From Candidatus Sungbacteria bacterium RIFCSPHIGHO2_02_FULL_52_23 (GTDB lineage: Bacteria; Patescibacteriota; Minisyncoccia; Sungbacterales; HO2-52-23): a DNA stretch of 30,570 bases. The position numbers and the translations under genes were made by a program. The stretch lies in contig MHQM01000025.1 in NCBI GenBank assembly GCA_001820655.1, forward strand, positions 1 to 30,570, read 5' to 3'. Positions 178 to 22,768 of this stretch are shown here, piece by piece. Every line of letters starts with the position of its first letter. Position 1 is the first letter of the stretch. Below the pieces are notes generated by a model. It was given only the letters and a program-made list of their open reading frames with translations. It made no database searches and was not told where the DNA came from.

Positions 178-1077
178 CTAAATATCGAAGATTTTCCTTG
201 CATTCTCCGTCGTCATTTGCGCTGTCGTCTCGTACGACAGTGTCTTCAATTCCGCAAGCTTACGCGCGGTCTCCACGATATACGCAGGTTCGTTGCGGCG
301 GCCTCGGTGGGGCACAGGCGTGATGTAAGGAGCATCCGTCTCCAAAACAATCCGCTCTATCGGTATATAGCGTACCACCTCGTCATAGTCGCGGGCAAAC
401 GTGATCACGCCTCCGAAAGAAAACGAAAAACCAAGATCAAGGAGTGCTCGCGCATCATCTACAGTGCCTGCGAAGAAATGGATAACTCCAGAATGAGCGT
501 TTAGCGTAGAGCGTTTAGCGTTTAGCACGGTGATCAGATCCGCAAATGCGTTGCGGCAGTGGATCATCAAGGGTTTCTTTACTTCTTGCGCAAGTTCAAT
601 TTGCGCGCGGAACGCGCGCTCCTGCTTGATTCTTGATTCCTGATTCGTGCTTCTATAGTAATCCAGACCGCATTCGCCGATTGCCACAACCTTCGGGTCT
701 TGGGCAAGCTTTTTGTAATATTCAAAATCAAATTCCTCTCCACGCGACGTAAACCCCTTGTCACCTGTCGCTTGTTGCTTGTCGCTAATGTCTAGTTCCT
801 GTGCGTCGTGATACGACCTTTCCGTATGCACCGGATGGAGACCCACCGAGGCGTACACGCCCTCCATGTATTGATGCGCTGTCTCCACTGATGCCTCCGA
901 TGTATCGCGCTGGGTGCCGACATTCACCATCCAGACGCCCGCATCCAGCGCGCGCCTGATCACCGCATCTTTATCTTCCGCATATGCGGCAAACTGCGTA
1001 TGAGTATGGACATCAAAAAGAAATGGAGCGCTGCTCCGATCCTGACGAGCCACTGATGATTCTACAAAATTATCCAT
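178..1077 (-). CDS. tatD: TatD-family metal-dependent hydrolase/DNase
   Basis: Motifs DVHTH, GLHP, GECGLDY, IHCR, ETDAPY, RRNEP. Start placed at ATG 1077; the track start 1113 is also possible. Confidence 0.92.
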   Translation of the reverse strand: MDNFVESSVARQDRSSAPFLFDVHTHTQFAAYAEDKDAVIRRALDAGVWMVNVGTQRDTSEASVETAHQYMEGVYASVGLHPVHTERSYHDAQELDISDKQQATGDKGFTSRGEEFDFEYYKKLAQDPKVVAIGECGLDYYRSTNQESRIKQERAFRAQIELAQEVKKPLMIHCRNAFADLITVLNAKRSTLNAHSGVIHFFAGTVDDARALLDLGFSFSFGGVITFARDYDEVVRYIPIERIVLETDAPYITPVPHRGRRNEPAYIVETARKLAELKTLSYETTAQMTTENARKIFDI

Positions 1078-1703
1078 CTGAAATGAGAATACGGCCGAAG
1101 ATATTGGAAACAAGGCAATACTGCTAACATAGAATACCCACTTGCAGGCCGAGAAAATCCAATGAATTGATCATCTGGGAGAGCAACTATTCTACCCACA
1201 GTACCGGTAGCGGGTCCAATAACTGATCTATTTTCACGTGCAAAAAAGAGACAAGCAGGCCTTGTTTGAATCGGAGGTTTTTTGCCTTCACTGTTTGGCT
1301 CGCTTGGTATCTGGAAACTGTCTTCCAGATACATTATTTGTGTTGACGTTCCGACAAGAGAAGTGATGATCGGTTTTCCACCACCAATCCATTGAGGCAC
1401 TAATGGGAAAATGATCAGTGGAAAAAGATAAATCCAGTAAGTAAAAACGAGCGCATACCGAAAATATCGCCAATCCAAGATACGGGTAATGAAAATGAAA
1501 CGCAGATAAAAGTAGAAGCATACGACCGCTAATATCCCAGCCGATATAAATTGCGTCCGAAGAAGATTGAATTCGAAAAGCCCGAAATTGGTGAGGAATC
1601 TGTTCCAAACTGCAAAGCCGGCTACATACACACATGCAAGTGCCAACGGCCAAAATCCTATATATTCTTTCGCAGTATCCCCAATTTTCTTCAGTCCGGA
1701 CAT
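1062..1703 (-). CDS. Hypothetical multi-pass membrane protein
   Basis: Open frame with about 3-4 hydrophobic segments, visibly AT-richer than the flanks. No family recognised; start uncertain (1703 or 1742). Confidence 0.6.
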   Translation of the reverse strand: MSGLKKIGDTAKEYIGFWPLALACVYVAGFAVWNRFLTNFGLFEFNLLRTQFISAGILAVVCFYFYLRFIFITRILDWRYFRYALVFTYWIYLFPLIIFPLVPQWIGGGKPIITSLVGTSTQIMYLEDSFQIPSEPNSEGKKPPIQTRPACLFFARENRSVIGPATGTVGRIVALPDDQFIGFSRPASGYSMLAVLPCFQYLRPYSHFRWIIL

Positions 1704-1761
1704 AAGCTCAAGGCATAGAAAAGTTCTACGCCGTTTTTCCATTTATAGCTTCTACTCAGTC

Positions 1762-2001
1762 TTATGCCCGCGCAGGAGCGAAAGATCTGCGCAACGATAA
1801 CGGAAGGAGTTTTGATGCCTGCTTGAGAAAGCGCGATACCTTCAGTATCTCAAAATACACGGGGGTGCCGTCCGGGCTGAAATGCACGATTGCGTCACCC
1901 ATCTCGGCCGCGTATTCAATCGGCTTATGACTTGCCTCAATACGAAGTACGTCCGCTTCCGGTTCGTAACTCATCTTAATTTGTTTTTTATGATTTGCCA
2001 T
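1762..2001 (-). CDS. DUF2283-like protein (putative antitoxin)
   Basis: MSYEPEADVLRI...GDAIVHFSPDGTPVYFEIL matches the DUF2283 pattern (YD.E.D.L.I...G...EIL). The start overlaps the stop of the upstream toxin fragment. Confidence 0.8.
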   Translation of the reverse strand: MANHKKQIKMSYEPEADVLRIEASHKPIEYAAEMGDAIVHFSPDGTPVYFEILKVSRFLKQASKLLPLSLRRSFAPARA

Positions 2002-2062
2002 ATTGGATTTTCCGGCCGGGGTAGAATGTAACCACCACTTTATCATCGCCTGTTTCTTTATA
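1988..2062 (-). pseudogene. 3' fragment of a DUF4258-like (RelE/BrnT-fold) toxin gene split by the IS
   Basis: Translates as YKETGDDKVVVTFYPGRKIQYGKS* and joins in frame to the 5' fragment (4141-4328) when the IS and one TSD copy are removed. Confidence 0.85.
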
Positions 2063-2105
2063 GGGAATGTCTTAGCTAAAGGTAGGGGTTATCCACGGGA
2101 AGCTA

Positions 2106-2133
2106 TTGACAGGATTTACGGCGGTGATACACT
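2106..2133 (+). promoter_or_regulatory. Sigma70-type promoter inside the IS left end
   Basis: TTGACA (2106-2111), N16, TACACT (2128-2133) with a TGn extension, 32 nt upstream of the transposase ATG. Confidence 0.55.
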
Positions 2134-2165
2134 ACCCATATAAAGGTAGTGAATAAATCACCGCT

Positions 2166-3032
2166 ATGAATATCATCCAGATCTACAAACGCTTTCCTGC
2201 CCAAAAAGATTGCCTTGCGCATTTAGAAGCCGTCCGGTGGAAAGAGAGCATCGTCTGCCCCTATTGTAGCTCAAAGAGGATTACCTCTATGGTAAAGGAG
2301 CATCGGCATCACTGCAATGCCTGTAATACTTCTTTCGGCGTTACGGTACACACTATTTTTCATAAAACAAAACTTGATCTGCAAAAGTGGTTTTTAGCTA
2401 TCTCTCTGGTGTTAAACGCCAAAAAGGGTGTCAGTGCGCGGCAACTGGCGCGAGACATTGAAGTGAACAAAAATACAGCGTGGTTTGTACTTATGCGTAT
2501 ACGAAAGGCCATGCGCGAAGATGGCGACTTGCTTGAAGGTATTGTAGAGGCGTATGAAACGTATGTGGGCGGTAAAAATCGCAACAAACACAACGATAAG
2601 AAAACAAAGGGCGGACAAGGACGAAGTACTAAAGACAAGACGCCCGTGTTCGGGCTCGTTAAGAGAGGAGGTAAGGTACATGCCCAAAAAGTCAGTAGAG
2701 TCAGCGCAAGTACGCTCCAGTATCTTATCAGGCAGAACGTGAAGAAAGGATCGCATATTATGACAGATGAGTGGGGTGCGTATTTCGGTCTTGAAAAGCG
2801 AGATTATCAGCATACGACAGTGAATCATGGTACAGGTCAGTATGTAATTGGGGACGCACATACGAATACCATAGAGAGCTTTTGGGCGCTTCTGAAACGT
2901 GGGATTATGGGACAGTATCATCACGTTAGCGCAAAGTATCTGGACCGCTATGTGGACGAGTTTTGTTTCCGACACAATAACCGAGGAAATGACGACATAT
3001 TTGCGTTGTGTATTGAAAAGAGCGTTACATAG
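2166..3032 (+). CDS. IS1595-family (ISXO2-like) DDE transposase, first catalytic Asp substituted
   Basis: N-terminal Zn ribbon CPYC..CNAC, HKTKLDLQKWF, VEAYETYVGG (canonical VEADETY), MTDEWGAY, HTNTIESFW, YLDRYVDEFCFRHN. Confidence 0.93.
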   Translation: MNIIQIYKRFPAQKDCLAHLEAVRWKESIVCPYCSSKRITSMVKEHRHHCNACNTSFGVTVHTIFHKTKLDLQKWFLAISLVLNAKKGVSARQLARDIEVNKNTAWFVLMRIRKAMREDGDLLEGIVEAYETYVGGKNRNKHNDKKTKGGQGRSTKDKTPVFGLVKRGGKVHAQKVSRVSASTLQYLIRQNVKKGSHIMTDEWGAYFGLEKRDYQHTTVNHGTGQYVIGDAHTNTIESFWALLKRGIMGQYHHVSAKYLDRYVDEFCFRHNNRGNDDIFALCIEKSVT

Positions 3033-3069
3033 AGCGGACCACCCAATCTAACTCTTAAATAAGCCACTT

Positions 3070-3933
3070 ATGGAGAAAAATATACCTAAAGCATGGGGAA
3101 GCGGACCAATAACCCTTAACGGAGTGGAAATACACTGTGCCGTTCTTGAAGATGGAACTCCTATTTTGAATAAGGGAAGGATGATGAAGGCATTGGGACG
3201 TGCGTGGAGAGGGAAAAGTAGAAGCGATAAACCTACTTTCATTGGAGCGATAAACTTGCAACCTTTCATCAGGCCTGAATTGGGGGAGTTACTCAAGGGG
3301 GTTAAATTTTTTGATGGCGGACGCCTTGCAACAGGATATGATGCAAAGATACTGCCTATGATTTGCCGTGTGTATAGGGACGCGGAACGGGCAGATGTCC
3401 TAACACCCAATCAATTACCAACAGCGCGAGTTTGCGAAACGATGGCAGATGCTTTCTCGGCAGTCGGCATTACTGCTCTGATCTATGAACAACTCGGATA
3501 CGAGAAATTCAAGCATCCCGAGGCGTTCAAGATGCTCATTGAAAGTTATCTTGAGGCAGAAGTCCGCAAGTGGATGAAGGAATTTCCCGATGAATTGTTT
3601 TATCAAATGGACCGGATATACGGTAATCAACCAACTACTTCCCGAAATAGACCTCAGTATTACGCCAAGTTTATACGAAAGTATATCTACGAGCCATTTG
3701 AAAAAGGTGAGGTATTAAAACTACTTGACGCGAGAAATCCCCAAAACGAAAAAGGGACGAGAAAATATCGTCATCATTCACTTACCAGTGAAAAGGTAGG
3801 ATTGCCAGCACTCCGTTCTCAAATCTGGCAAGTTATAGCCACGCTTAAAATATCCGCCAATAAAACAAAGTACGAAAATAATTATGCTCGGATGATGGGG
3901 CAAGCATACCAAGCCGACTTATGGGATAGCTAA
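3070..3933 (+). CDS. P63C-domain protein (IS cargo)
   Basis: C-terminal KWMKEFPDELFYQMDRIYG...RPQYYAKFIRKYIYEP resembles the phage P63C domain; N-terminal I.CAVLEDG motif. Confidence 0.75.
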   Translation: MEKNIPKAWGSGPITLNGVEIHCAVLEDGTPILNKGRMMKALGRAWRGKSRSDKPTFIGAINLQPFIRPELGELLKGVKFFDGGRLATGYDAKILPMICRVYRDAERADVLTPNQLPTARVCETMADAFSAVGITALIYEQLGYEKFKHPEAFKMLIESYLEAEVRKWMKEFPDELFYQMDRIYGNQPTTSRNRPQYYAKFIRKYIYEPFEKGEVLKLLDARNPQNEKGTRKYRHHSLTSEKVGLPALRSQIWQVIATLKISANKTKYENNYARMMGQAYQADLWDS

Positions 3934-3965
3934 TGACAGGGATAGTAGTATGCTATACTAAGAAA

Positions 3966-4109
3966 ATGAATATCTATACTACAATCTTTGGAGTATCCGT
4001 GGTCGTTCTTCTCTTTATGATCATGCAGACCTTACAGAAGATAGCTAAACACTTACAAGATTTACGGGATGATTTGAATGGCAATAGTGAATATGAGAGT
4101 GAGGAATAA
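3966..4109 (+). CDS. 47-aa single-TM small protein (IS cargo; not in the ORF track)
   Basis: MNIYTTIFGVSVVVLLFMIMQTLQKIAKHLQDLRDDLNGNSEYESEE*, ending just before the right TIR. Confidence 0.5.
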   Translation: MNIYTTIFGVSVVVLLFMIMQTLQKIAKHLQDLRDDLNGNSEYESEE

Positions 4110-4140
4110 TTTAACCCCTACCTTTAGCTAAGACATTCCC

Positions 4141-4328
4141 TCTTTATATACTACGCGCAGCACACGTGTTTTGTCAAAACTCCGTTGCGCGATTTTCAAG
4201 GGCATGCGCGAATAATCAATTATCTCCGGAGCGGTAACAGCGCGGATCACTGCAGATTTTGGGATCACGACGCCGTGCCTCCAGAGAATAGTGAACTTTT
4301 CTAGCGCGTGTTTGGTAAAATGAATCAT
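4141..4328 (-). pseudogene. 5' fragment of the DUF4258-like toxin gene
   Basis: MIHFTKHALEKF...RVLRVVYKE; the ATG overlaps the metG stop (ATGA). It ends prematurely in the IS right end (GMS*). Confidence 0.85.
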
Positions 4329-7148: not shown

Positions 7149-8420
7149 TTATAGCTCCTTTAAGATGCGTTCAAAAGGAGCGCGATCGCGGGCGGGCCCT
7201 ATCATAGCAAGATTGAGAGCCTCGGGACGGATCATCTCGCGCGATACCGCCAGGATATCTTCAGGCGTCACTGCGTCAATCTTCGCAAACACTTCATCAA
7301 TCGTCTGGGGCTTGCCTGTCAGCATCTCTTCTCCCCCGATGAAATTTGCCACCGCATTAGACTGCTCAAGGCCGATCAATGTCGTGCCACGCATATAGTC
7401 TTTGACGCGCTTGAGCTCGGCCGCCGAAACCGGCTCCACAGTCATGCGTTTATATTCCTCCAGAGCCGCACGGATCGTCTTTTCCACATTGGCGTGATCC
7501 ACGCCAGCATACGTCACCAGATACCCGCGATTTGAGTATGACTCGTGTGCTGTCATCACGGTGTATGCCAGGCCAAGTTTGTCGCGGATGCGATCCCACA
7601 TGCGGGCGCTCCACGATCCTCCGAGCAAAGCCGCGAGCACTTCTGCGATATAGCGTTTCGGATGATTCGCGTCATATCCACGGAATCCGAGCGTGATATG
7701 CGTCTGATCGGTCTCTTTGTACTCAAGGTCAAGCCCGATGCCGTTTTGCGTATCGCGTACCGCGGGCTTGGTCCGCATGGGCGAGGCCGATCGCAGATCG
7801 CCGAAAAGCTCGCGCGCACGGGCAACCGTAGCGTCCTGGTCAAAATTGCCCGCGATCACGATCGCGGTGTTGGACGCGACATACTGGTGCGTGAAGTAAT
7901 TGGCAAAATCATCGCGCGAAAGCGCGCGGATCACTTTTTCCTCGCCGATGACGTCCCATCCGGCCGGCTGGTCTCCGTACAGGAGCCGCTCCCACACCCA
8001 CCAGACGAAGAGAGTTGGCGTGTCGCGGTCTTTGTGCATCTCCTCTATGATCACCTGCCGCTCGCGATTGATTTCTTCCTCCGCCAAAAGAGAGTTTTTG
8101 TAGATATCGGCGAGCAGGTCAAGCGACTGGTCAAGGTATGTTTTCGCGGCCTTGATGTGATAGCCCGTGATTTCATGGCTCGTAAACGCATTGGAGATAG
8201 ACCCCATGCCGTCAAGCTCGTGTTTGATTTCGTCGGGCGTAGGGCGATTCTTCGTGCCCTTGAAAAACATGTGCTCCAAAAAATGCGAGATGCCTCCAAT
8301 CTCCCGCGCCTCATAGTCAGACCCCGTGCCACAAAGCACCAGTACCGTCACGGTATTGGTCCCCACCATGGGGGCCGTAATAATCCGCAATCCGCTTTCT
8401 AATGTAGTTTTTTTAAACAT
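7149..8420 (-). CDS. M16-family zinc peptidase (pitrilysin-like)
   Basis: HFLEH inverted zincin motif, NAFTS, GLAY. Start placed at MFKKTTLESGL (8420). Confidence 0.92.
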   Translation of the reverse strand: MFKKTTLESGLRIITAPMVGTNTVTVLVLCGTGSDYEAREIGGISHFLEHMFFKGTKNRPTPDEIKHELDGMGSISNAFTSHEITGYHIKAAKTYLDQSLDLLADIYKNSLLAEEEINRERQVIIEEMHKDRDTPTLFVWWVWERLLYGDQPAGWDVIGEEKVIRALSRDDFANYFTHQYVASNTAIVIAGNFDQDATVARARELFGDLRSASPMRTKPAVRDTQNGIGLDLEYKETDQTHITLGFRGYDANHPKRYIAEVLAALLGGSWSARMWDRIRDKLGLAYTVMTAHESYSNRGYLVTYAGVDHANVEKTIRAALEEYKRMTVEPVSAAELKRVKDYMRGTTLIGLEQSNAVANFIGGEEMLTGKPQTIDEVFAKIDAVTPEDILAVSREMIRPEALNLAMIGPARDRAPFERILKEL

Positions 8421-8745
8421 AGTATTGCAAATAAAGGATATTGCGACCGCAGGGTTGAACGCGCTTCGCGCGTACTGACCCGCCACAAGCCGCGGGATAT
8501 TGACCCTTTTGATGCGTCGTCGCTCGAGAGAAGCGTAAGCAAGCTCACATTTCTCTCTTTGCTCGCCGCAATAAGTTGAAAGAAATCGCGTCTGTCAGAA
8601 AAAACGCAAGCCGTGCAACAAAAGGATAGCATGCGGCGAAGGACTTGCACAATATCATTTTTTGTGGCACAAATCCTGAATCAGACGCTTTGAATCTTAT
8701 GCGTCCGAAGGAAGTCGTTCCCTGACAATTTATATCATCTCCCCG

Positions 8746-8753
8746 AAAGGAGG
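8746..8753 (+). promoter_or_regulatory. Strong Shine-Dalgarno site of the cas12 gene
   Basis: AAAGGAGG 6 nt upstream of the GTG start at 8760. Confidence 0.75.
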
Positions 8754-8759
8754 CGCATC

Positions 8760-11327
8760 GTGGACAACGCGAATAAGCCCAGTACCAAATCCTTGGTCAA
8801 CACGACTCGCATCAGCGATCACTTTGGGGTAACTCCCGGGCAGGTCACGCGCGTATTCTCTTTTGGCATAATACCGACAAAGAGACAATACGCCATTATA
8901 GAACGGTGGTTTGCCGCGGTAGAGGCCGCGCGTGAGCGACTCTATGGAATGCTCTATGCGCATTTCCAAGAAAATCCCCCTGCCTACCTGAAAGAAAAAT
9001 TTTCGTACGAGACATTTTTCAAAGGCAGACCCGTACTTAACGGCCTCCGTGATATTGATCCCACGATCATGACATCTGCCGTTTTTACGGCACTACGGCA
9101 CAAGGCCGAAGGCGCGATGGCCGCATTCCACACCAACCACCGACGGCTTTTTGAGGAAGCCCGGAAGAAAATGCGGGAATACGCCGAATGCCTGAAGGCC
9201 AATGAGGCATTGCTCCGGGGTGCGGCGGACATAGATTGGGACAAAATTGTCAACGCCCTGCGTACCCGCCTCAATACCTGTCTGGCACCCGAGTACGATG
9301 CGGTGATTGCGGATTTTGGCGCACTGTGCGCATTCCGGGCGCTCATTGCAGAAACAAACGCTCTAAAAGGCGCGTACAACCACGCGCTCAATCAGATGCT
9401 TCCCGCTCTTGTGAAAGTGGATGAGCCGGAAGAAGCCGAGGAGTCGCCCCGTCTCCGATTCTTCAATGGGCGGATCAACGACCTTCCGAAATTTCCCGTT
9501 GCCGAGCGCGAGACGCCGCCGGATACCGAGACGATCATCCGGCAACTGGAAGATATGGCGCGGGTCATACCGGACACTGCCGAAATCCTCGGCTATATCC
9601 ATCGCATAAGGCATAAAGCCGCGCGCCGGAAGCCCGGAAGCGCCGTACCGCTACCCCAACGCGTCGCTCTCTACTGTGCGATCCGCATGGAAAGGAATCC
9701 CGAAGAAGATCCGTCAACGGTCGCCGGGCATTTCCTCGGCGAAATTGATCGGGTATGCGAAAAGCGCCGTCAAGGACTTGTCCGCACGCCTTTTGACAGC
9801 CAGATCAGGGCAAGATACATGGATATCATCTCTTTTCGCGCGACGCTCGCGCATCCTGACCGGTGGACCGAGATCCAGTTCCTCCGGAGCAATGCGGCAA
9901 GCAGAAGAGTACGCGCCGAGACAATATCGGCCCCGTTTGAAGGGTTTTCATGGACGAGCAACCGGACAAATCCCGCGCCTCAGTACGGCATGGCGCTTGC
10001 CAAAGACGCTAATGCTCCGGCCGATGCCCCGGAGTTGTGTATCTGTCTTTCTCCATCATCTGCCGCATTCTCTGTCAGAGAAAAAGGAGGAGATTTGATC
10101 TATATGAGACCGACCGGCGGCAGACGAGGCAAAGACAATCCGGGCAAAGAGATCACCTGGGTACCCGGATCTTTTGACGAGTACCCCGCATCCGGTGTAG
10201 CACTGAAACTCCGCCTTTATTTCGGCAGATCACAGGCGCGCAGAATGCTCACCAATAAAACGTGGGGCCTCTTGTCGGATAATCCGCGCGTATTCGCCGC
10301 CAACGCCGAGCTGGTGGGAAAAAAAAGAAATCCCCAAGACCGGTGGAAGTTATTCTTCCATATGGTAATCAGCGGACCTCCTCCGGTGGAGTATCTGGAT
10401 TTCTCCTCCGATGTGCGTTCCCGGGCCCGAACCGTCATCGGGATAAACCGCGGCGAGGTCAATCCGCTTGCCTATGCCGTGGTGTCTGTAGAGGATGGCC
10501 AAGTGCTTGAGGAGGGTCTTCTCGGCAAAAAAGAGTACATAGACCAGTTGATAGAGACCAGACGCCGGATCAGCGAGTACCAATCCCGCGAACAAACCCC
10601 GCCCCGCGATTTACGCCAGAGGGTCCGGCATCTGCAGGATACGGTTTTGGGAAGCGCCCGGGCAAAGATCCATTCGCTGATCGCATTCTGGAAGGGTATC
10701 CTCGCGATAGAACGGCTGGATGACCAGTTCCATGGCAGGGAGCAAAAGATTATTCCCAAAAAGACCTACCTTGCCAATAAAACGGGCTTTATGAACGCGT
10801 TGAGTTTTTCCGGCGCGGTCCGCGTTGACAAAAAAGGCAACCCATGGGGAGGTATGATAGAGATTTATCCGGGCGGCATTTCCCGCACCTGCACACAGTG
10901 CGGAACCGTCTGGCTTGCGAGGCGACCGAAAAATCCCGGACACCGCGACGCCATGGTGGTCATTCCCGATATCGTGGATGATGCGGCCGCAACGGGGTTT
11001 GACAACGTGGATTGCGATGCAGGCACTGTGGATTACGGGGAACTTTTTACGCTCAGTAGAGAGTGGGTCCGGCTGACTCCGCGTTATAGTCGCGTCATGC
11101 GGGGGACATTGGGAGACCTTGAACGGGCGATCCGGCAAGGAGATGATCGCAAGAGCAGACAAATGCTCGAGCTTGCGCTTGAGCCGCAACCGCAATGGGG
11201 GCAGTTTTTTTGCCACCGATGCGGATTCAACGGACAGTCCGACGTGCTGGCCGCGACCAATCTGGCGCGGCGCGCCATATCTTTGATCAGGCGCCTGCCG
11301 GATACTGATACTCCCCCAACCCCTTGA
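8760..11327 (+). CDS. Type V CRISPR effector, CasX/Cas12e-like, 855 aa, RuvC-I D>N (probably nuclease-dead)
   Basis: C-terminal split RuvC: VIGINRGEVNP (N563; CasX has IG(V/I)DRGENIP), LAIERL (E651), SRTCTQCG...FFCHRCG Zn fingers, QSDVLAATNLARR (D828). A CRISPR array lies 213 bp downstream. Confidence 0.88.
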   Translation: MDNANKPSTKSLVNTTRISDHFGVTPGQVTRVFSFGIIPTKRQYAIIERWFAAVEAARERLYGMLYAHFQENPPAYLKEKFSYETFFKGRPVLNGLRDIDPTIMTSAVFTALRHKAEGAMAAFHTNHRRLFEEARKKMREYAECLKANEALLRGAADIDWDKIVNALRTRLNTCLAPEYDAVIADFGALCAFRALIAETNALKGAYNHALNQMLPALVKVDEPEEAEESPRLRFFNGRINDLPKFPVAERETPPDTETIIRQLEDMARVIPDTAEILGYIHRIRHKAARRKPGSAVPLPQRVALYCAIRMERNPEEDPSTVAGHFLGEIDRVCEKRRQGLVRTPFDSQIRARYMDIISFRATLAHPDRWTEIQFLRSNAASRRVRAETISAPFEGFSWTSNRTNPAPQYGMALAKDANAPADAPELCICLSPSSAAFSVREKGGDLIYMRPTGGRRGKDNPGKEITWVPGSFDEYPASGVALKLRLYFGRSQARRMLTNKTWGLLSDNPRVFAANAELVGKKRNPQDRWKLFFHMVISGPPPVEYLDFSSDVRSRARTVIGINRGEVNPLAYAVVSVEDGQVLEEGLLGKKEYIDQLIETRRRISEYQSREQTPPRDLRQRVRHLQDTVLGSARAKIHSLIAFWKGILAIERLDDQFHGREQKIIPKKTYLANKTGFMNALSFSGAVRVDKKGNPWGGMIEIYPGGISRTCTQCGTVWLARRPKNPGHRDAMVVIPDIVDDAAATGFDNVDCDAGTVDYGELFTLSREWVRLTPRYSRVMRGTLGDLERAIRQGDDRKSRQMLELALEPQPQWGQFFCHRCGFNGQSDVLAATNLARRAISLIRRLPDTDTPPTP

Positions 11328-11352
11328 CAAGATAGCGGGATTAAGCTATCTT
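11324..11352 (+). promoter_or_regulatory. Promoter overlapping the cas12 stop codon, containing an inverted repeat
   Basis: TTGACA (11324-11329), N17, TATCTT (11347-11352). The inverted repeat AAGATAGC/GCTATCTT (11329-11336 / 11345-11352) overlaps both boxes. Confidence 0.65.
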
Positions 11353-11358
11353 CTTCCC

Positions 11359-11515
11359 CAAGCTCCTTATATAAGTAGTATCCATATAGAGGGGCCCATT
11401 GGCCGCTTTAAAATCGTTTCAACGGCCAATCCCCCGACCGGATTACCGGTCGGGTATAAAAGCTTCCTCTCATGAAAAGAGCCCTGTCTTCCTCGCGGAG
11501 ATAGGGCTCAAAAAA
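11359..11515 (+). ncRNA. Candidate tracr/scout-like RNA
   Basis: Non-coding stretch between effector and array with three hairpins (11398-11430, 8 bp; 11433-11454, 9 bp perfect; 11479-11509, 13 bp with 2 G-U) and short repeat-complementary segments. Boundaries and strand are inferred. Confidence 0.5.
11479..11509 (-). terminator. Possible intrinsic terminator for minus-strand transcription
   Basis: 13-bp stem followed on the minus strand by TTTT. On the plus strand it is followed by an A-run, so it is not a plus-strand terminator. Confidence 0.4.
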
Positions 11516-11540
11516 TTTAATGCTTGATGATCATATTCTC

Positions 11541-11764
11541 GTTTACACACTCCCTCTCATAGGGTGGCTCTTAGACGGGGCTGCTCATTACGGCTGTTGG
11601 GTTTACACACTCCCTCTCATGAGGTAACTCTTGGACTAGGCGTATCCAAGGCAACCTCGCATGTTTTTACATACCCCCTCTCATGGGATGGCTCTTAGAC
11701 GACCTCTTGGCTTCGGGGAACCTCCTGTTTACACACTCCCTCTCATGGGGGATGGCTCTTAGAC
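11541..11764. CRISPR. Degenerate CRISPR mini-array: 4 repeats (36, 36, 36, 38 nt), 3 spacers (24, 28, 26 nt)
   Basis: R1 11541-11576 GTTTACACACTCCCTCTCATAGGGTGGCTCTTAGAC; R2 11601-11636; R3 11665-11700; R4 11727-11764. Spacers 11577-11600, 11637-11664, 11701-11726. Orientation not resolved. Confidence 0.92.
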
Positions 11765-11893
11765 AGCGCCTTGAGCCTATCAAAGAGCTTTTGGGAATGT
11801 AGCGCAAAAGAATATTGAGCGCAAGAGACGCATAAAGACCAACATTTCCAGAAAGTTGGCAACGCAATGATTTATAAATCCAAATCTGCACGG

Positions 11894-13249
11894 CTATTGC
11901 GTAGCGTTTGAGATTGATCCCTTTCTTTTTTCTGCTAAAAACCTGGCCAATGCCGGCACAGCTATGCGCTCCTGTTTTGCCGTATCGCGATCGCGGACGG
12001 TTACAGTGTCGTCTTCCAATGTCTGATAATCCACGGTGATACAGTAGGGCGTGCCGATCTCGTCCTGCGCATAATAACGCTTGCCGATATTGCCGCGCGC
12101 GTCCCATGCGATACTGAATCCCCCTGCTTTGAGTTCCTTGTACACCTCGCCTGCCTTTTCCACGATCTGCGGACGGTTTGATACCAGAGGAAATACTGCG
12201 GCTTTGTAGGGCGCCAGGCGTGGCGGCAGTTTCAGATATACGCGCTTTCCTTTTTCGCTTTCCTCCTCGCGATACGCTTCAAGCAGTACCGCAAGCACTG
12301 TACGATCCACGCCCCATGTCGGCTCAATCACGTGCGGATAAAACGAATCTTCTCCTTCTTCGCGATACGGCGGCTCCTTGAAGTGATTTTTGAGGTCAAA
12401 GTCGCCGCGGTATGCGAGGCCATACAGTTCTTTTTTGCCGAACGGAAAGTCATACTCAAAATCCACCGTGCGTTTGGAGTAGTGCGCGCGCTCCCCGTCC
12501 GGGACTTCCAACTCATGCACACGCTCCATCGCGATCCCCATATCACTGATCCACGCGCGCATTTCGTTGAGCCAGTGCGCAAAATGGTCTTCCCATGATG
12601 CCTCGCGGACAAAATATTCTATCTCCATCTGCTCAAATTCGCGGGAGCGGAAGATAAAGTCGCGCGGGGTGATTTCGTTGCGGAATGCTTTGCCGATCTG
12701 CGCGATACCAAAAGGCAGAGTACGGCGCATGGTGTCCGTGATATTTTTGAAATTCACAAACATCCCCTGTGCGGTCTCGGGGCGCAAGTATGTCTGGCTT
12801 GCCGAATCCTCCACCGGGCCGACAAATGTGCGGAAAAGAAGATTGAAATTCCGCGCTTCGGAAAAATCTGCGCCCTCCGCCGCCCGGCCGTGCTCCCGCG
12901 CGTAATGTCCCGTCCATTCGTCTGTCTGATCGGCGCGAAAACGCTGATGGCATTTTTTGCACTCTACCAGAGGATCGGTAAATTCGCCGACATGGCCCGA
13001 TACTTCCCATACTTTCGGATTCATCACGATTGCAGTATCAATCCCCACCATGTCGTCGCGGGCACGCACAAATCTCCGCCACCACATTTCTTTGATGTTG
13101 TTTTTGAGCTCCACGCCCAAAGGCCCATAGTCCCAGGTACCGGCAAGCCCGCCGTATATCTCGGAAGCGGGAAAGACAAAGCCGCGCCGCTTGGCCAGGC
13201 TCACAATCTTTTCCATTGATACCGATGCATCTTCTGCGGCTTTGCTCAT
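11894..13249 (-). CDS. glyQS: Glycyl-tRNA synthetase, alpha2 (homodimeric) type
   Basis: KRRGFVFPASEIYGG, YLRPETAQG, FRNEITPRDFIFRSREFEQMEIE, HVIEPTWGVDR, DEIGTPYCITVD. Confidence 0.96.
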   Translation of the reverse strand: MSKAAEDASVSMEKIVSLAKRRGFVFPASEIYGGLAGTWDYGPLGVELKNNIKEMWWRRFVRARDDMVGIDTAIVMNPKVWEVSGHVGEFTDPLVECKKCHQRFRADQTDEWTGHYAREHGRAAEGADFSEARNFNLLFRTFVGPVEDSASQTYLRPETAQGMFVNFKNITDTMRRTLPFGIAQIGKAFRNEITPRDFIFRSREFEQMEIEYFVREASWEDHFAHWLNEMRAWISDMGIAMERVHELEVPDGERAHYSKRTVDFEYDFPFGKKELYGLAYRGDFDLKNHFKEPPYREEGEDSFYPHVIEPTWGVDRTVLAVLLEAYREEESEKGKRVYLKLPPRLAPYKAAVFPLVSNRPQIVEKAGEVYKELKAGGFSIAWDARGNIGKRYYAQDEIGTPYCITVDYQTLEDDTVTVRDRDTAKQERIAVPALARFLAEKRKGSISNATQ

Positions 13250-19557: not shown

Positions 19558-20103
19558 TTAAGATACTCTACCGATTGTCCCTTGCTCGCGGACGCTAAAG
19601 ATGTGTACCTTGCCCGCCAACGCCAAATCATCCAACAACGTAATAAAACTCACAGGGAGAGGACAATCACCTATCCACACACTTTTTTGAAAATGGCGAA
19701 AGCCGCACGTGATCAGCTCCGCACGCACGGCAGTTCGTTTTTGCCGTTCCCGTTCGGGGATATCAAAAATAACAAGTCGTGTAATTCCGTCACTTACGTT
19801 ATTTTCTATATTTGCTTCCACCTGATCTACCCGCGCTCTTCCCGCAGGCGACAAACGCCATTTCGCGTTTTTTCTGCCACCCATTCGGACAATCAATCCT
19901 TCTCGTTGCAAGCGCCACAAAATCGTCGATACCGTATGACGAGTAATTTTTCTTGACCGTTCCAAACCGAGCAGAGGACGCCACATATTGGCATAAGAAT
20001 ACTTTCTTGGGAAAAATGCGCCCAACGTCGCTTCACCAAGACCTCCTAAAATCTCAAGCGTCGCACGACCAATAGAGTATTTCTTTTCCTCCTGGTTTTT
20101 CAT
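19558..20103 (-). CDS. PaaX-like transcriptional regulator (wHTH plus Cas2-like domain)
   Basis: TILWRLQREGLI...WRLSPAG (wHTH) and RLVIFDIPERERQKR..VR.EL...GF...QKSVWI (PaaX central, Cas2-like domain). Confidence 0.8.
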   Translation of the reverse strand: MKNQEEKKYSIGRATLEILGGLGEATLGAFFPRKYSYANMWRPLLGLERSRKITRHTVSTILWRLQREGLIVRMGGRKNAKWRLSPAGRARVDQVEANIENNVSDGITRLVIFDIPERERQKRTAVRAELITCGFRHFQKSVWIGDCPLPVSFITLLDDLALAGKVHIFSVREQGTIGRVS

Positions 20104-21904: not shown

Positions 21905-22351
21905 ATGTCAGACCTTGCCGTCAACCGCCGCGCTACTTTTGACTACGAAATCATTGAAACATATGAGGCTGGTATCGCATTGCAGGGTTTTGAAGTAAAA
22001 GCCGTCAAAGCAGGGCGCATGAATCTGGCAGGCACGTTTGCCATCATCCGCGGGGATGAGGCATGGCTCGTCAATGCGTCCATTTCCCCATACCAGAGCG
22101 GCAATACGCCCGAAAAGTATGACCCCACGCGGCCGCGGCGGCTCCTCCTGCACAAAAAAGAGATCAAAGAGCTGATCGGAGCTACAGCCGAAAAAGGATT
22201 GACAATTGTGCCTTTAAAGGTGTACGCTGTACGCAATCGGATCAAGATCGCAATCGCTCTTGCACGACACAAAAAGAAAGCCGACAAACGCGAGACGATC
22301 AAGCGGCGTGAATCCGATAGAGAGATCCAACGAACTTTGAAATGGGGATGA
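21905..22351 (+). CDS. smpB: SsrA-binding protein
   Basis: NRRATFDYEIIETYEAGIALQGFEVKA, RPRRLLLHKKEI, KKKADKRETIKRRE. True start is ATG 21905, not the track's 21440. Confidence 0.96.
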   Translation: MSDLAVNRRATFDYEIIETYEAGIALQGFEVKAVKAGRMNLAGTFAIIRGDEAWLVNASISPYQSGNTPEKYDPTRPRRLLLHKKEIKELIGATAEKGLTIVPLKVYAVRNRIKIAIALARHKKKADKRETIKRRESDREIQRTLKWG

Positions 22352-22741
22352 CTGGCTTCGACGGGGATGAAAACGCCTGCAATCGGGCCGAGGACGCAGA
22401 GACACTCGTAAAACCCTCTGCAAACCAATACGTGCAAACGTATCTGAAGGCGCTGTAGCGGTTTCCGCCGACTTGTTCGGTGGTGCCGTGCGCGCCCCCG
22501 CATTTGCCTAATTTTTAGATAAATGCCATCCGTCTTTGGCGTTCGGGCTGAAGATTCACGGGTGTCATACTCCCGAACTTGATTCGCGGCATTTCGGGGC
22601 CGCGCGTGACACCTACCGGAACCCGGGACGGACTTTTTTGCTGAAATTCTATTTCCGCTCCGGCACAACAATTTCAGCTACGCCCGTAGCGATTGCCCGC
22701 GCGATTATTTTCGGACGAGGGTTCGATTCCCTCCATCTCCA
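22344..22741 (+). ncRNA. ssrA: tmRNA
   Basis: 5' GGGGATGACTGGCTTCGAC pairs with 3' CATCTCC-A; T-arm GAGGGTTCGATTCCCTC; tag ORF at 22434-22511; CCA not encoded. Confidence 0.93.
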
Positions 22742-22768
22742 TATCATACTTCTGTTTCTCGTTTAAAA

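Follow-up and report, generated by a model that had tools for sequence, protein, structure and literature searches.

An adaptation-less type V-E CRISPR cassette with a substituted RuvC residue at the glyQS locus of a Sungbacteria genome

[quoted passage not shown] We find that this cassette is a genuine type V-E unit, kept by selection, of ancient foreign origin and devoid of adaptation genes, whose interference is most likely of a binding type with static guides. The original prediction, made from the sequence alone, had proposed a stand-alone cas12 cassette without an adaptation module at this place, and the analysis presented here bears it out. Two features that lay outside its account, a region resembling a trans-activating CRISPR RNA (tracrRNA) gene and the replacement of an aspartate in the RuvC-I motif of the effector, are important to the way in which the cassette works.

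The G000 assembly (695 kb in 51 contigs, GC content ~52%, 87.7% complete, without the 3' end of the 16S rRNA) is of a size typical of candidate phyla radiation (CPR)/Patescibacteria genomes. It was compared with the genome of a sister species (G001, 92% complete), with those of two more distant members of the same genus (G002 and G003, at ~58-64% protein identity) and with cas12e loci of distant relatives. Gene context within the cas12e clade was read at four loci, namely those of G000 and G001 (the latter being locus L012) and the distant-relative loci L030 and L032.

The effector and its active site

The 855-residue product matches the NCBIfam equivalog model for Cas12e/CasX (NF045604) over profile positions 2-886 with an E-value of 5e-218 and 726 bits (cut-off 200). 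It also matches the PADLOC Cas12e profile with 1409 bits, a score which suggests that this profile was seeded on the same lineage and that the family assignment is therefore not new. A word-index search for homologues returned only the protein itself, and an exhaustive HMMER search its relatives, at 23-35% identity. When an AlphaFold2 model built with 23 homologues as input (predicted local distance difference test 82, predicted template modelling score 0.64) was compared with the structures in the PDB, ranks 1-7 were all taken by Cas12e/CasX proteins (VemCas12e, PlmCasX, LesCas12e and DpbCasX; E 1e-24 to 2e-16). The cas12e product is a type V-E effector, and this assignment is secure.

All four zinc-finger cysteines (residues 711, 714, 818 and 821) are kept and invariant. 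The RuvC residues are N563 (in the motif IGINRGE), E651 and D828, so that the D-E-D triad is not intact. The asparagine is found in both G000 and G001, encoded by the identical AAC codon, whereas aspartate occupies the position in 19 of 19 homologues covering the motif, as it does in the loci L026 and L030-L032, and N563 aligns to the position at which aspartate was changed to alanine in the engineered dVemCas12e. In enzymes with RuvC/RNase H folds the loss of a metal-binding carboxylate, D-to-N changes included, usually abolishes cleavage. The reading frame of 855 codons is intact in both species, whose effectors are 90% identical, and the ratio of nonsynonymous to synonymous divergence (dN/dS) is 0.23 at a synonymous divergence (dS) of 0.20, compared with 0.03-0.07 for housekeeping neighbours and 0.19 for a surface-type DUF11 protein. 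Because the aspartate-to-asparagine change in RuvC-I is accompanied by purifying selection on both the effector and the tracrRNA-like region, a binding-only mode is favoured, and we put the chance that the G000/G001 effector interferes by binding, without double-strand cleavage, at about even.

ORFs of 1270-1390 amino acids found in further genomes of the family and of the phylum (G014:C14, G018:C28 and G022:C78, loci L009-L011; G145:C8 and G210:C15, loci L082-L083) align to the Cas12e profile in its RuvC part alone, with 54-118 bits, under the Cas12e cut-off. These are probably other type V effectors.

Insertion site, origin and age

The cassette, its flanks and its predicted RNA elements are arranged in the window as follows.

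7149-8420, - strand: M16 peptidase gene, left flank
8421-8759, + strand: left border and region upstream of cas12e, with a degenerate remnant of the glyQS 3' end at ~8441-8456 and AAGGAGG at 8747-8753
8760-11327, + strand: cas12e (CasX), 855 amino acids, GTG start
11324-11352, + strand: promoter-like TTGACA-17-TATCTT, overlapping the cas12e stop, candidate tracrRNA start
~11360-11520, + strand: tracrRNA-like non-coding region, recognised by conservation, fold and anti-repeat
11397-11430, + strand: predicted hairpin 1, with a U-rich loop
11433-11454, + strand: predicted hairpin 2
11462-11474, + strand: predicted anti-repeat core, a single-stranded segment forming 13 consecutive pairs with the minus-strand repeat
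11479-11509, + strand: predicted GC hairpin, with TTTTC following it on the minus strand
11541-11764, probably - strand: CRISPR mini-array, 4 repeats and 3 spacers
11765-11893, - strand: stretch from the glyQS stop to the array, a candidate leader or promoter should the array be read on the minus strand; read-through from glyQS is possible
11894-13249, - strand: glyQS, right flank
11967-11996, no strand: right copy of a ~30-nt direct repeat, in the 3' coding region of glyQS

Both neighbours named in the original prediction, the M16 peptidase gene and glyQS, are thus in place, and a comparison with relatives lacking the cassette, which had been proposed as a check, fixes its ends at 8421 and 11893. 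In G003 the stop of glyQS lies 4 nt from the M16 start, and this empty junction identifies the cassette as an insertion. Neither G002 nor G003 carries cas12e. The G002 junction (locus L019, on G002:C125, 2839-3716) is occupied by ~880 bp comprising two small ORFs, antitoxin-like by eye, and a palindromic element resembling a miniature inverted-repeat transposable element, and the glyQS/M16 junction appears to be a variable hot spot for accessory DNA. In G001 the order glyQS, array, tracrRNA-like region, cas12e and M16 gene is the same as in G000 and the locus is collinear at 89-93% nucleotide identity, with GlyRS 96% and the M16 protein 99% identical. The collinearity extends to both margins of the cassette: 8443-8759 aligns to G001 at ~90% nucleotide identity, and 11765-11893 falls in a block of 91% identity that starts at 11724. 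G001 has in addition a ~750-bp AT-rich insert between the M16 start and the left border of the cassette, which is not found in the G000 window.

A direct repeat brackets the cassette. The glyQS 3' piece at 11967-11996 has a second, left copy in G001 (7505-7534 on the reverse complement of L012) with 29 of 30 positions identical. There it lies directly against the cassette; in G000 (8441-8456) it is shortened and diverged. The repeat may be an att-like trace of the kind that integration at the 3' end of glyQS would leave, through either a site-specific reaction or a single crossover, and the cassette itself has no integrase remaining. We propose that the cassette entered the glyQS/M16 junction in an ancestor common to G000 and G001, most likely by integrating at the 3' end of glyQS and so leaving a duplicated ~30-nt piece at both borders, and that it has been inherited vertically from then on.

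That the insertion is old follows from its collinearity in two species, from a dS of cas12e between G000 and G001 (0.20) like that of six flanking genes (0.20-0.36), and from codon use typical of the genome, the GC, GC3 and synonymous-codon likelihood of cas12e all lying less than one standard deviation from those of 542 long ORFs of G000. We hold the ancient date of the insertion with considerable confidence. Co-transfer of glyQS with the cassette was considered and rejected, since GlyRS is 58% identical to its counterparts in G002/G003 and the DUF11 protein, likewise, 57-58%.

The original prediction had taken the Shine-Dalgarno site of cas12e as a hint of foreign origin. The site exists as described, AAGGAGG lying 6 nt upstream of the GTG (a weaker AAGGAGA in G001), and no such site was found in the usual window for metG, the M16 gene, glyQS, the DUF11 gene, recO, orf221 or ileS, in agreement with what had been said of ileS and glyQS. 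Strong Shine-Dalgarno sites are rare across G000 (~4% of naive first starts versus 1% in a control window), so that the site is unusual for this genome, yet it is weak evidence on origin. Cas12e scores above the family cut-off in 1 of 60 relatives (G001) and in none of 400 genomes sampled from the phylum, and a scan of genome contigs returned G001 plus remote matches only. Insertion and sporadic occurrence together fit a foreign origin, through an acquisition that is ancient and not recent, and codon usage, the analysis of which had been proposed as a check, is typical of the genome.

Absence of an adaptation module

A profile search for Cas1 (PF01867) found none in G000, G001, G002 or G003. 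Pfam matches to Cas2 occur at two places elsewhere in the G000 genome and at window 19558-20103 (- strand), in proteins of 181-196 amino acids for which the best Pfam match is PaaX_M, a domain of PaaX regulators that resembles Cas2. They belong to a family combining a winged helix-turn-helix domain with PaaX_M, which has ~6 copies in G000 (window 19558-20103, C10, C51, C1, C34 and C31) and also 3-5 copies per genome in genomes without cas12e. We rejected them as adaptation genes, these PaaX_M regulators triggering false Cas2 calls in both Pfam and PADLOC. The only match to Cas4, a protein of ~420 amino acids conserved in all four genomes of the genus including those without cas12e, was set aside as well. 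The genome-wide search for cas1 and cas2 that had been suggested alongside the original prediction thus ended with unrelated paralogues only.

Neither another array nor a matching repeat was found in G000 or in G001-G003, and a simple CRISPR finder run on G000, which degenerate arrays would escape, detected no canonical array elsewhere. The finder flagged only a coding tandem repeat (C28:1221-1500), built on a 12-nt unit with 36- and 78-nt higher order, that encodes a low-complexity segment of the F-Y-P-G/S type. Nor did PADLOC models match any of nine neighbouring proteins except for one weak Cas2. The further statement that no cas1, cas2, cas4, transposase or defence gene flanks the cassette therefore stands for its immediate surroundings, with the qualification that a gene for an IS1595-family transposase (2166-3032) lies 5.4 kb from it, with metG, an AI-2E transporter gene and the M16 gene in between.

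The same stand-alone layout recurs at L030 and L032, with no cas1, cas2 or cas4 nearby and with efp, a winged helix-turn-helix gene and integrase/resolvase genes as neighbours. On its metagenome contig L032 adjoins genes for a tyrosine integrase, a resolvase and an rve integrase (2989-3912, 8408-8992 and 8989-9885), which hints that the cas12e clade travels on integrative elements. All four clade loci with readable context combine an effector, a tracrRNA-like region and a short array whose repeats differ from one another, and have no adaptation genes. We are highly confident that the cassette is stand-alone and adaptation-less. Since there is no adaptation module in the assembly, its guide set would be static and drifting.

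The tracrRNA-like region

Between cas12e and the array lie ~200 nt of non-coding DNA, in which the segment 11395-11523 differs between G000 and G001 at 2 positions (~98% identical), as against 91-93% identity in coding DNA and 20-36% divergence at synonymous sites, and it folds with z-scores of -5.4 and -6.7 relative to shuffled controls. An Rfam scan assigned no part of the cassette to a known RNA family, its sole match in the window being a transfer-messenger RNA (tmRNA). We predict that 11360-11520 is a tracrRNA gene, all assignments of RNA elements within it being predictions as well. The promoter-like element at 11324-11352 has a counterpart in G001, CTGACA-17-TATCTT. The best duplex among the four strand combinations is formed when the tracrRNA is read from the + strand and the CRISPR RNA (crRNA) from the - strand, with a mean of -26.6 kcal/mol versus -20.6 for shuffled repeats. 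At L030 and L032, too, the gene is followed by a structured RNA bearing an anti-repeat and then by the array, the arrays being oriented the opposite way, and at L030 the anti-repeat matches its repeat over 18 of 19 nt by eye.

Read on the minus strand, the G000 repeats have ...AAAC as their end, much as those of L030 have ...AAAAC and those of L032 ...GCAAC. The canonical Cas12e repeat ends in ...CAAAG, which the ...AAAC ends resemble. The U-rich loop of hairpin 1 contains GUUU, which could pair with the ...AAAC repeat end, and this predicted GUUU/AAAC pairing would be like the triplex of Cas12e guides (Li et al. 2024, PMC11685505).

In the mechanism that we envisage, tracrRNA would be made on the + strand from the promoter overlapping the cas12e stop, the array would be read on the minus strand, and the core of each repeat would pair with the anti-repeat of the tracrRNA. 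RNase III, which is encoded in G000 (contig C51), could process the resulting duplex, and the assembled complex would block transcription or replication by programmable DNA binding, as Cas12m and Cas12c do.

The array and its spacers

Delimited by iterative local alignment, the G000 array consists of four non-identical repeats of 36-38 nt separated by spacers of 24, 28 and 26 nt; that of G001 has 26 repeats and 25 spacers, a sevenfold difference in array size. Every repeat is distinct in both species, 4 of 4 in G000 (mean pairwise identity 86%) and 26 of 26 in G001 (78%), as are the five to seven repeats of the L030 and L032 arrays from one another. The near-identical repeats of V-E loci are thus not found here, and outside the tracr-pairing core and the two ends the repeat is not conserved. 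Conservation is concentrated at GTTT, at the tracr-pairing CCTCTCAT core and at CTTAGAC, and the positions that pair with the tracrRNA are invariant across the 30 repeats of G000 and G001. The array is probably transcribed on the minus strand.

Spacer 1 of G000 matches the fourteenth spacer of G001 in all but one of 24 positions (23 of 24) and, being shared, predates the split of the two species. Its single difference in 24 nt is conservation beyond the neutral expectation (P ~0.01-0.03 at a neutral divergence of 20-25%). The repeats all differ, which fresh copying at each acquisition would not give, and one spacer is older than the species split; for both reasons the array looks frozen, its repeats drifting except where an RNA partner or the protein would constrain them. 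Compared with the G000 genome, the spacers yield only chance-level 14-17-mers.

Weighing of the explanations

Taken as a whole, the explanation that this is a minimal V-E unit, inserted long ago, with static guides and binding-type interference seems to us moderately probable, and a number of observations weigh against parts of it. Two of the three G000 spacers and 24 of the 25 G001 spacers are unshared, which either differential loss or gain could explain. Searches for protospacers were negative for all spacers in G000, for G000 spacers 1-3 in IMG/VR and for spacer 1 in 62 genomes belonging to the order, and nothing else in G000-G003 matches the G001 array. On the RNA side, no U-run follows the hairpin 11479-11509 on the + strand, and the call of the crRNA strand, which draws on an anti-repeat of ~13 bp and on analogy to L030 and L032, is provisional. 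Some nuclease or nickase activity might also remain with asparagine at RuvC-I. In its strongest form this last point makes the effector a working nuclease, in which Asn563 is tolerated or merely weakening, and the cassette an ordinary cleaving V-E module without adaptation, like the OpbCas12e locus. Such a reading would accommodate the intact E651, D828 and zinc-finger cysteines, the purifying selection on the effector and the fact that the published adaptation-less Cas12e, OpbCas12e, is an active nuclease. We nevertheless regard it as unlikely, given that the RuvC-I aspartate is invariant in all other homologues examined, that N563 occupies the position mutated in dVemCas12e and that D-to-N changes at the metal-binding carboxylates of RuvC usually kill cleavage.

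The remaining alternatives concern the guides and the fate of the cassette. Both G000 and G001 are incomplete assemblies, and a contig that was not assembled may carry a cas1-cas2 module; were it to lie in the missing 12% of G000, adaptation could act in trans on an array that is still acquiring, as the many unshared spacers might suggest. We think this very improbable, Cas1 being missing from two independent assemblies and adaptation genes from the surroundings of L030 and L032, while repeats copied at each acquisition would not be expected to be all distinct and one spacer is older than the species split. A domesticated regulator, in which a dead Cas12e with fixed guides or the tracrRNA represses host genes through partial complementarity, would suit the aspartate-to-asparagine change, the static array, the ultra-conserved tracrRNA-like region and the one spacer conserved beyond neutrality. 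It is made distinctly improbable by spacers that match the host only at chance level, by a G001 array that matches nothing else in G001 and by the sevenfold difference in array size between the species. We give the least credence to a non-functional relic heading for loss, which is extremely improbable: an array reduced to three spacers, degenerate repeats, a lost catalytic residue and the lack of adaptation genes would all be in keeping with decay, but the ORF of 855 codons is intact in two species at the dN/dS and dS given above, the tracrRNA-like region has stayed ~98% identical while synonymous sites diverged by 20-36%, and the tracr-pairing positions are invariant in 30 repeats. By these measures of sequence conservation the cassette is maintained by selection and is not decaying.

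Relation to known systems

The original prediction also held that described CasX loci carry cas1, cas4 and cas2, and here it is out of date. Altae-Tran 2023 (PMC10691335) describes V-E as 'stably associated' with cas1/2/4 and V-M and V-K loci as without adaptation genes, and the clade shows the opposite of that stable link at all four readable loci. A stand-alone Cas12e locus has precedent in that of OpbCas12e from an Opitutae bacterium, which has no adaptation module and a tracrRNA region between cas12e and the array (PMC11685505). The same study (Li et al. 2024, Nat Commun, PMC11685505) reports six new Cas12e orthologues, all of them active nucleases and one from a CPR bacterium (CkbCas12e). 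By its published description OpbCas12e resembles the G000 system in having no adaptation module, in the position of the tracrRNA region, which in G000 is predicted, and in being of the compact, NTSB-lacking type; it differs in that it is active with an intact RuvC triad, whereas G000 has asparagine at RuvC-I, repeats that are all distinct and a CPR host.

The best fold matches, VemCas12e and LesCas12e (8XYC, 8Y2I) and DpbCasX and PlmCasX (6NY1-2, 7WAY), with TM scores of 0.52-0.67, share with G000, whose tracrRNA is predicted, the tracrRNA-dependent type V-E mode, and the RuvC/TSL region of the G000 effector aligns in sequence to that of VemCas12e. They differ in having loci with cas1, cas2 and cas4 and aspartate at RuvC-I, and are 12-18% identical to the G000 effector over the structural alignment. 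The G001 sister locus shares the insertion site and N563 and has a near-identical tracrRNA-like region.

If the G000 effector indeed binds its target without cutting it, it would parallel Cas12m, Cas12c and Cas12k, type V effectors that act without cutting and that belong to subtypes other than V-E and are of independent origin. Cas12m and Cas12c do without a tracrRNA, as they process their crRNA themselves. The partners of Cas12k are Tn7-like transposition genes; these are missing at the G000 locus, and RNA-guided transposition of the Cas12k type was rejected for the cassette, no tnsB, tnsC, tniQ or Tn7-like genes being found near the effector. According to Altae-Tran 2023 (PMC10691335), Cas12m is reported to act by binding, and the same is implied for other type V effectors that are inactivated.

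In the literature searched we found no description of a clade-wide adaptation-less Cas12e layout with non-identical repeats, of a conserved natural RuvC-I substitution in Cas12e, or of a dated Cas12e insertion at glyQS. We tentatively suggest, as a possibility that falls somewhat short of an even chance, that G000 and G001 carry a natural nuclease-dead Cas12e lineage ('dCasX') that came in with a small integrative cassette targeting the 3' end of glyQS and now serves a CPR genome of symbiont size, with frozen, inherited guides and immunity or silencing by binding only. A natural dCasX of this kind would be an independent V-E case of the loss of cleavage seen in Cas12m, Cas12c and Cas12k, implying CRISPR immunity or regulation by binding alone, and would provide a DNA-binding scaffold that is compact, optimised by nature and equipped with a guide RNA of its own. 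The locus is further an example of a CRISPR unit persisting for long in a genome of ~0.7-0.9 Mb without renewing its memory.

Other features of the window

Beyond the flanks of the cassette, the further neighbours are the AI-2E transporter gene, metG, the DUF11 gene and recO. A patch of low GC content (0.43-0.46) at 1000-4200 contains the IS1595 transposase gene together with a gene for a P63C-domain protein (3070-3933) and looks like a separate mobile insertion. The tmRNA gene lies at 22344-22744 (+ strand), where it was detected by Rfam with 141 bits and its tag peptide was identified by ARAGORN.

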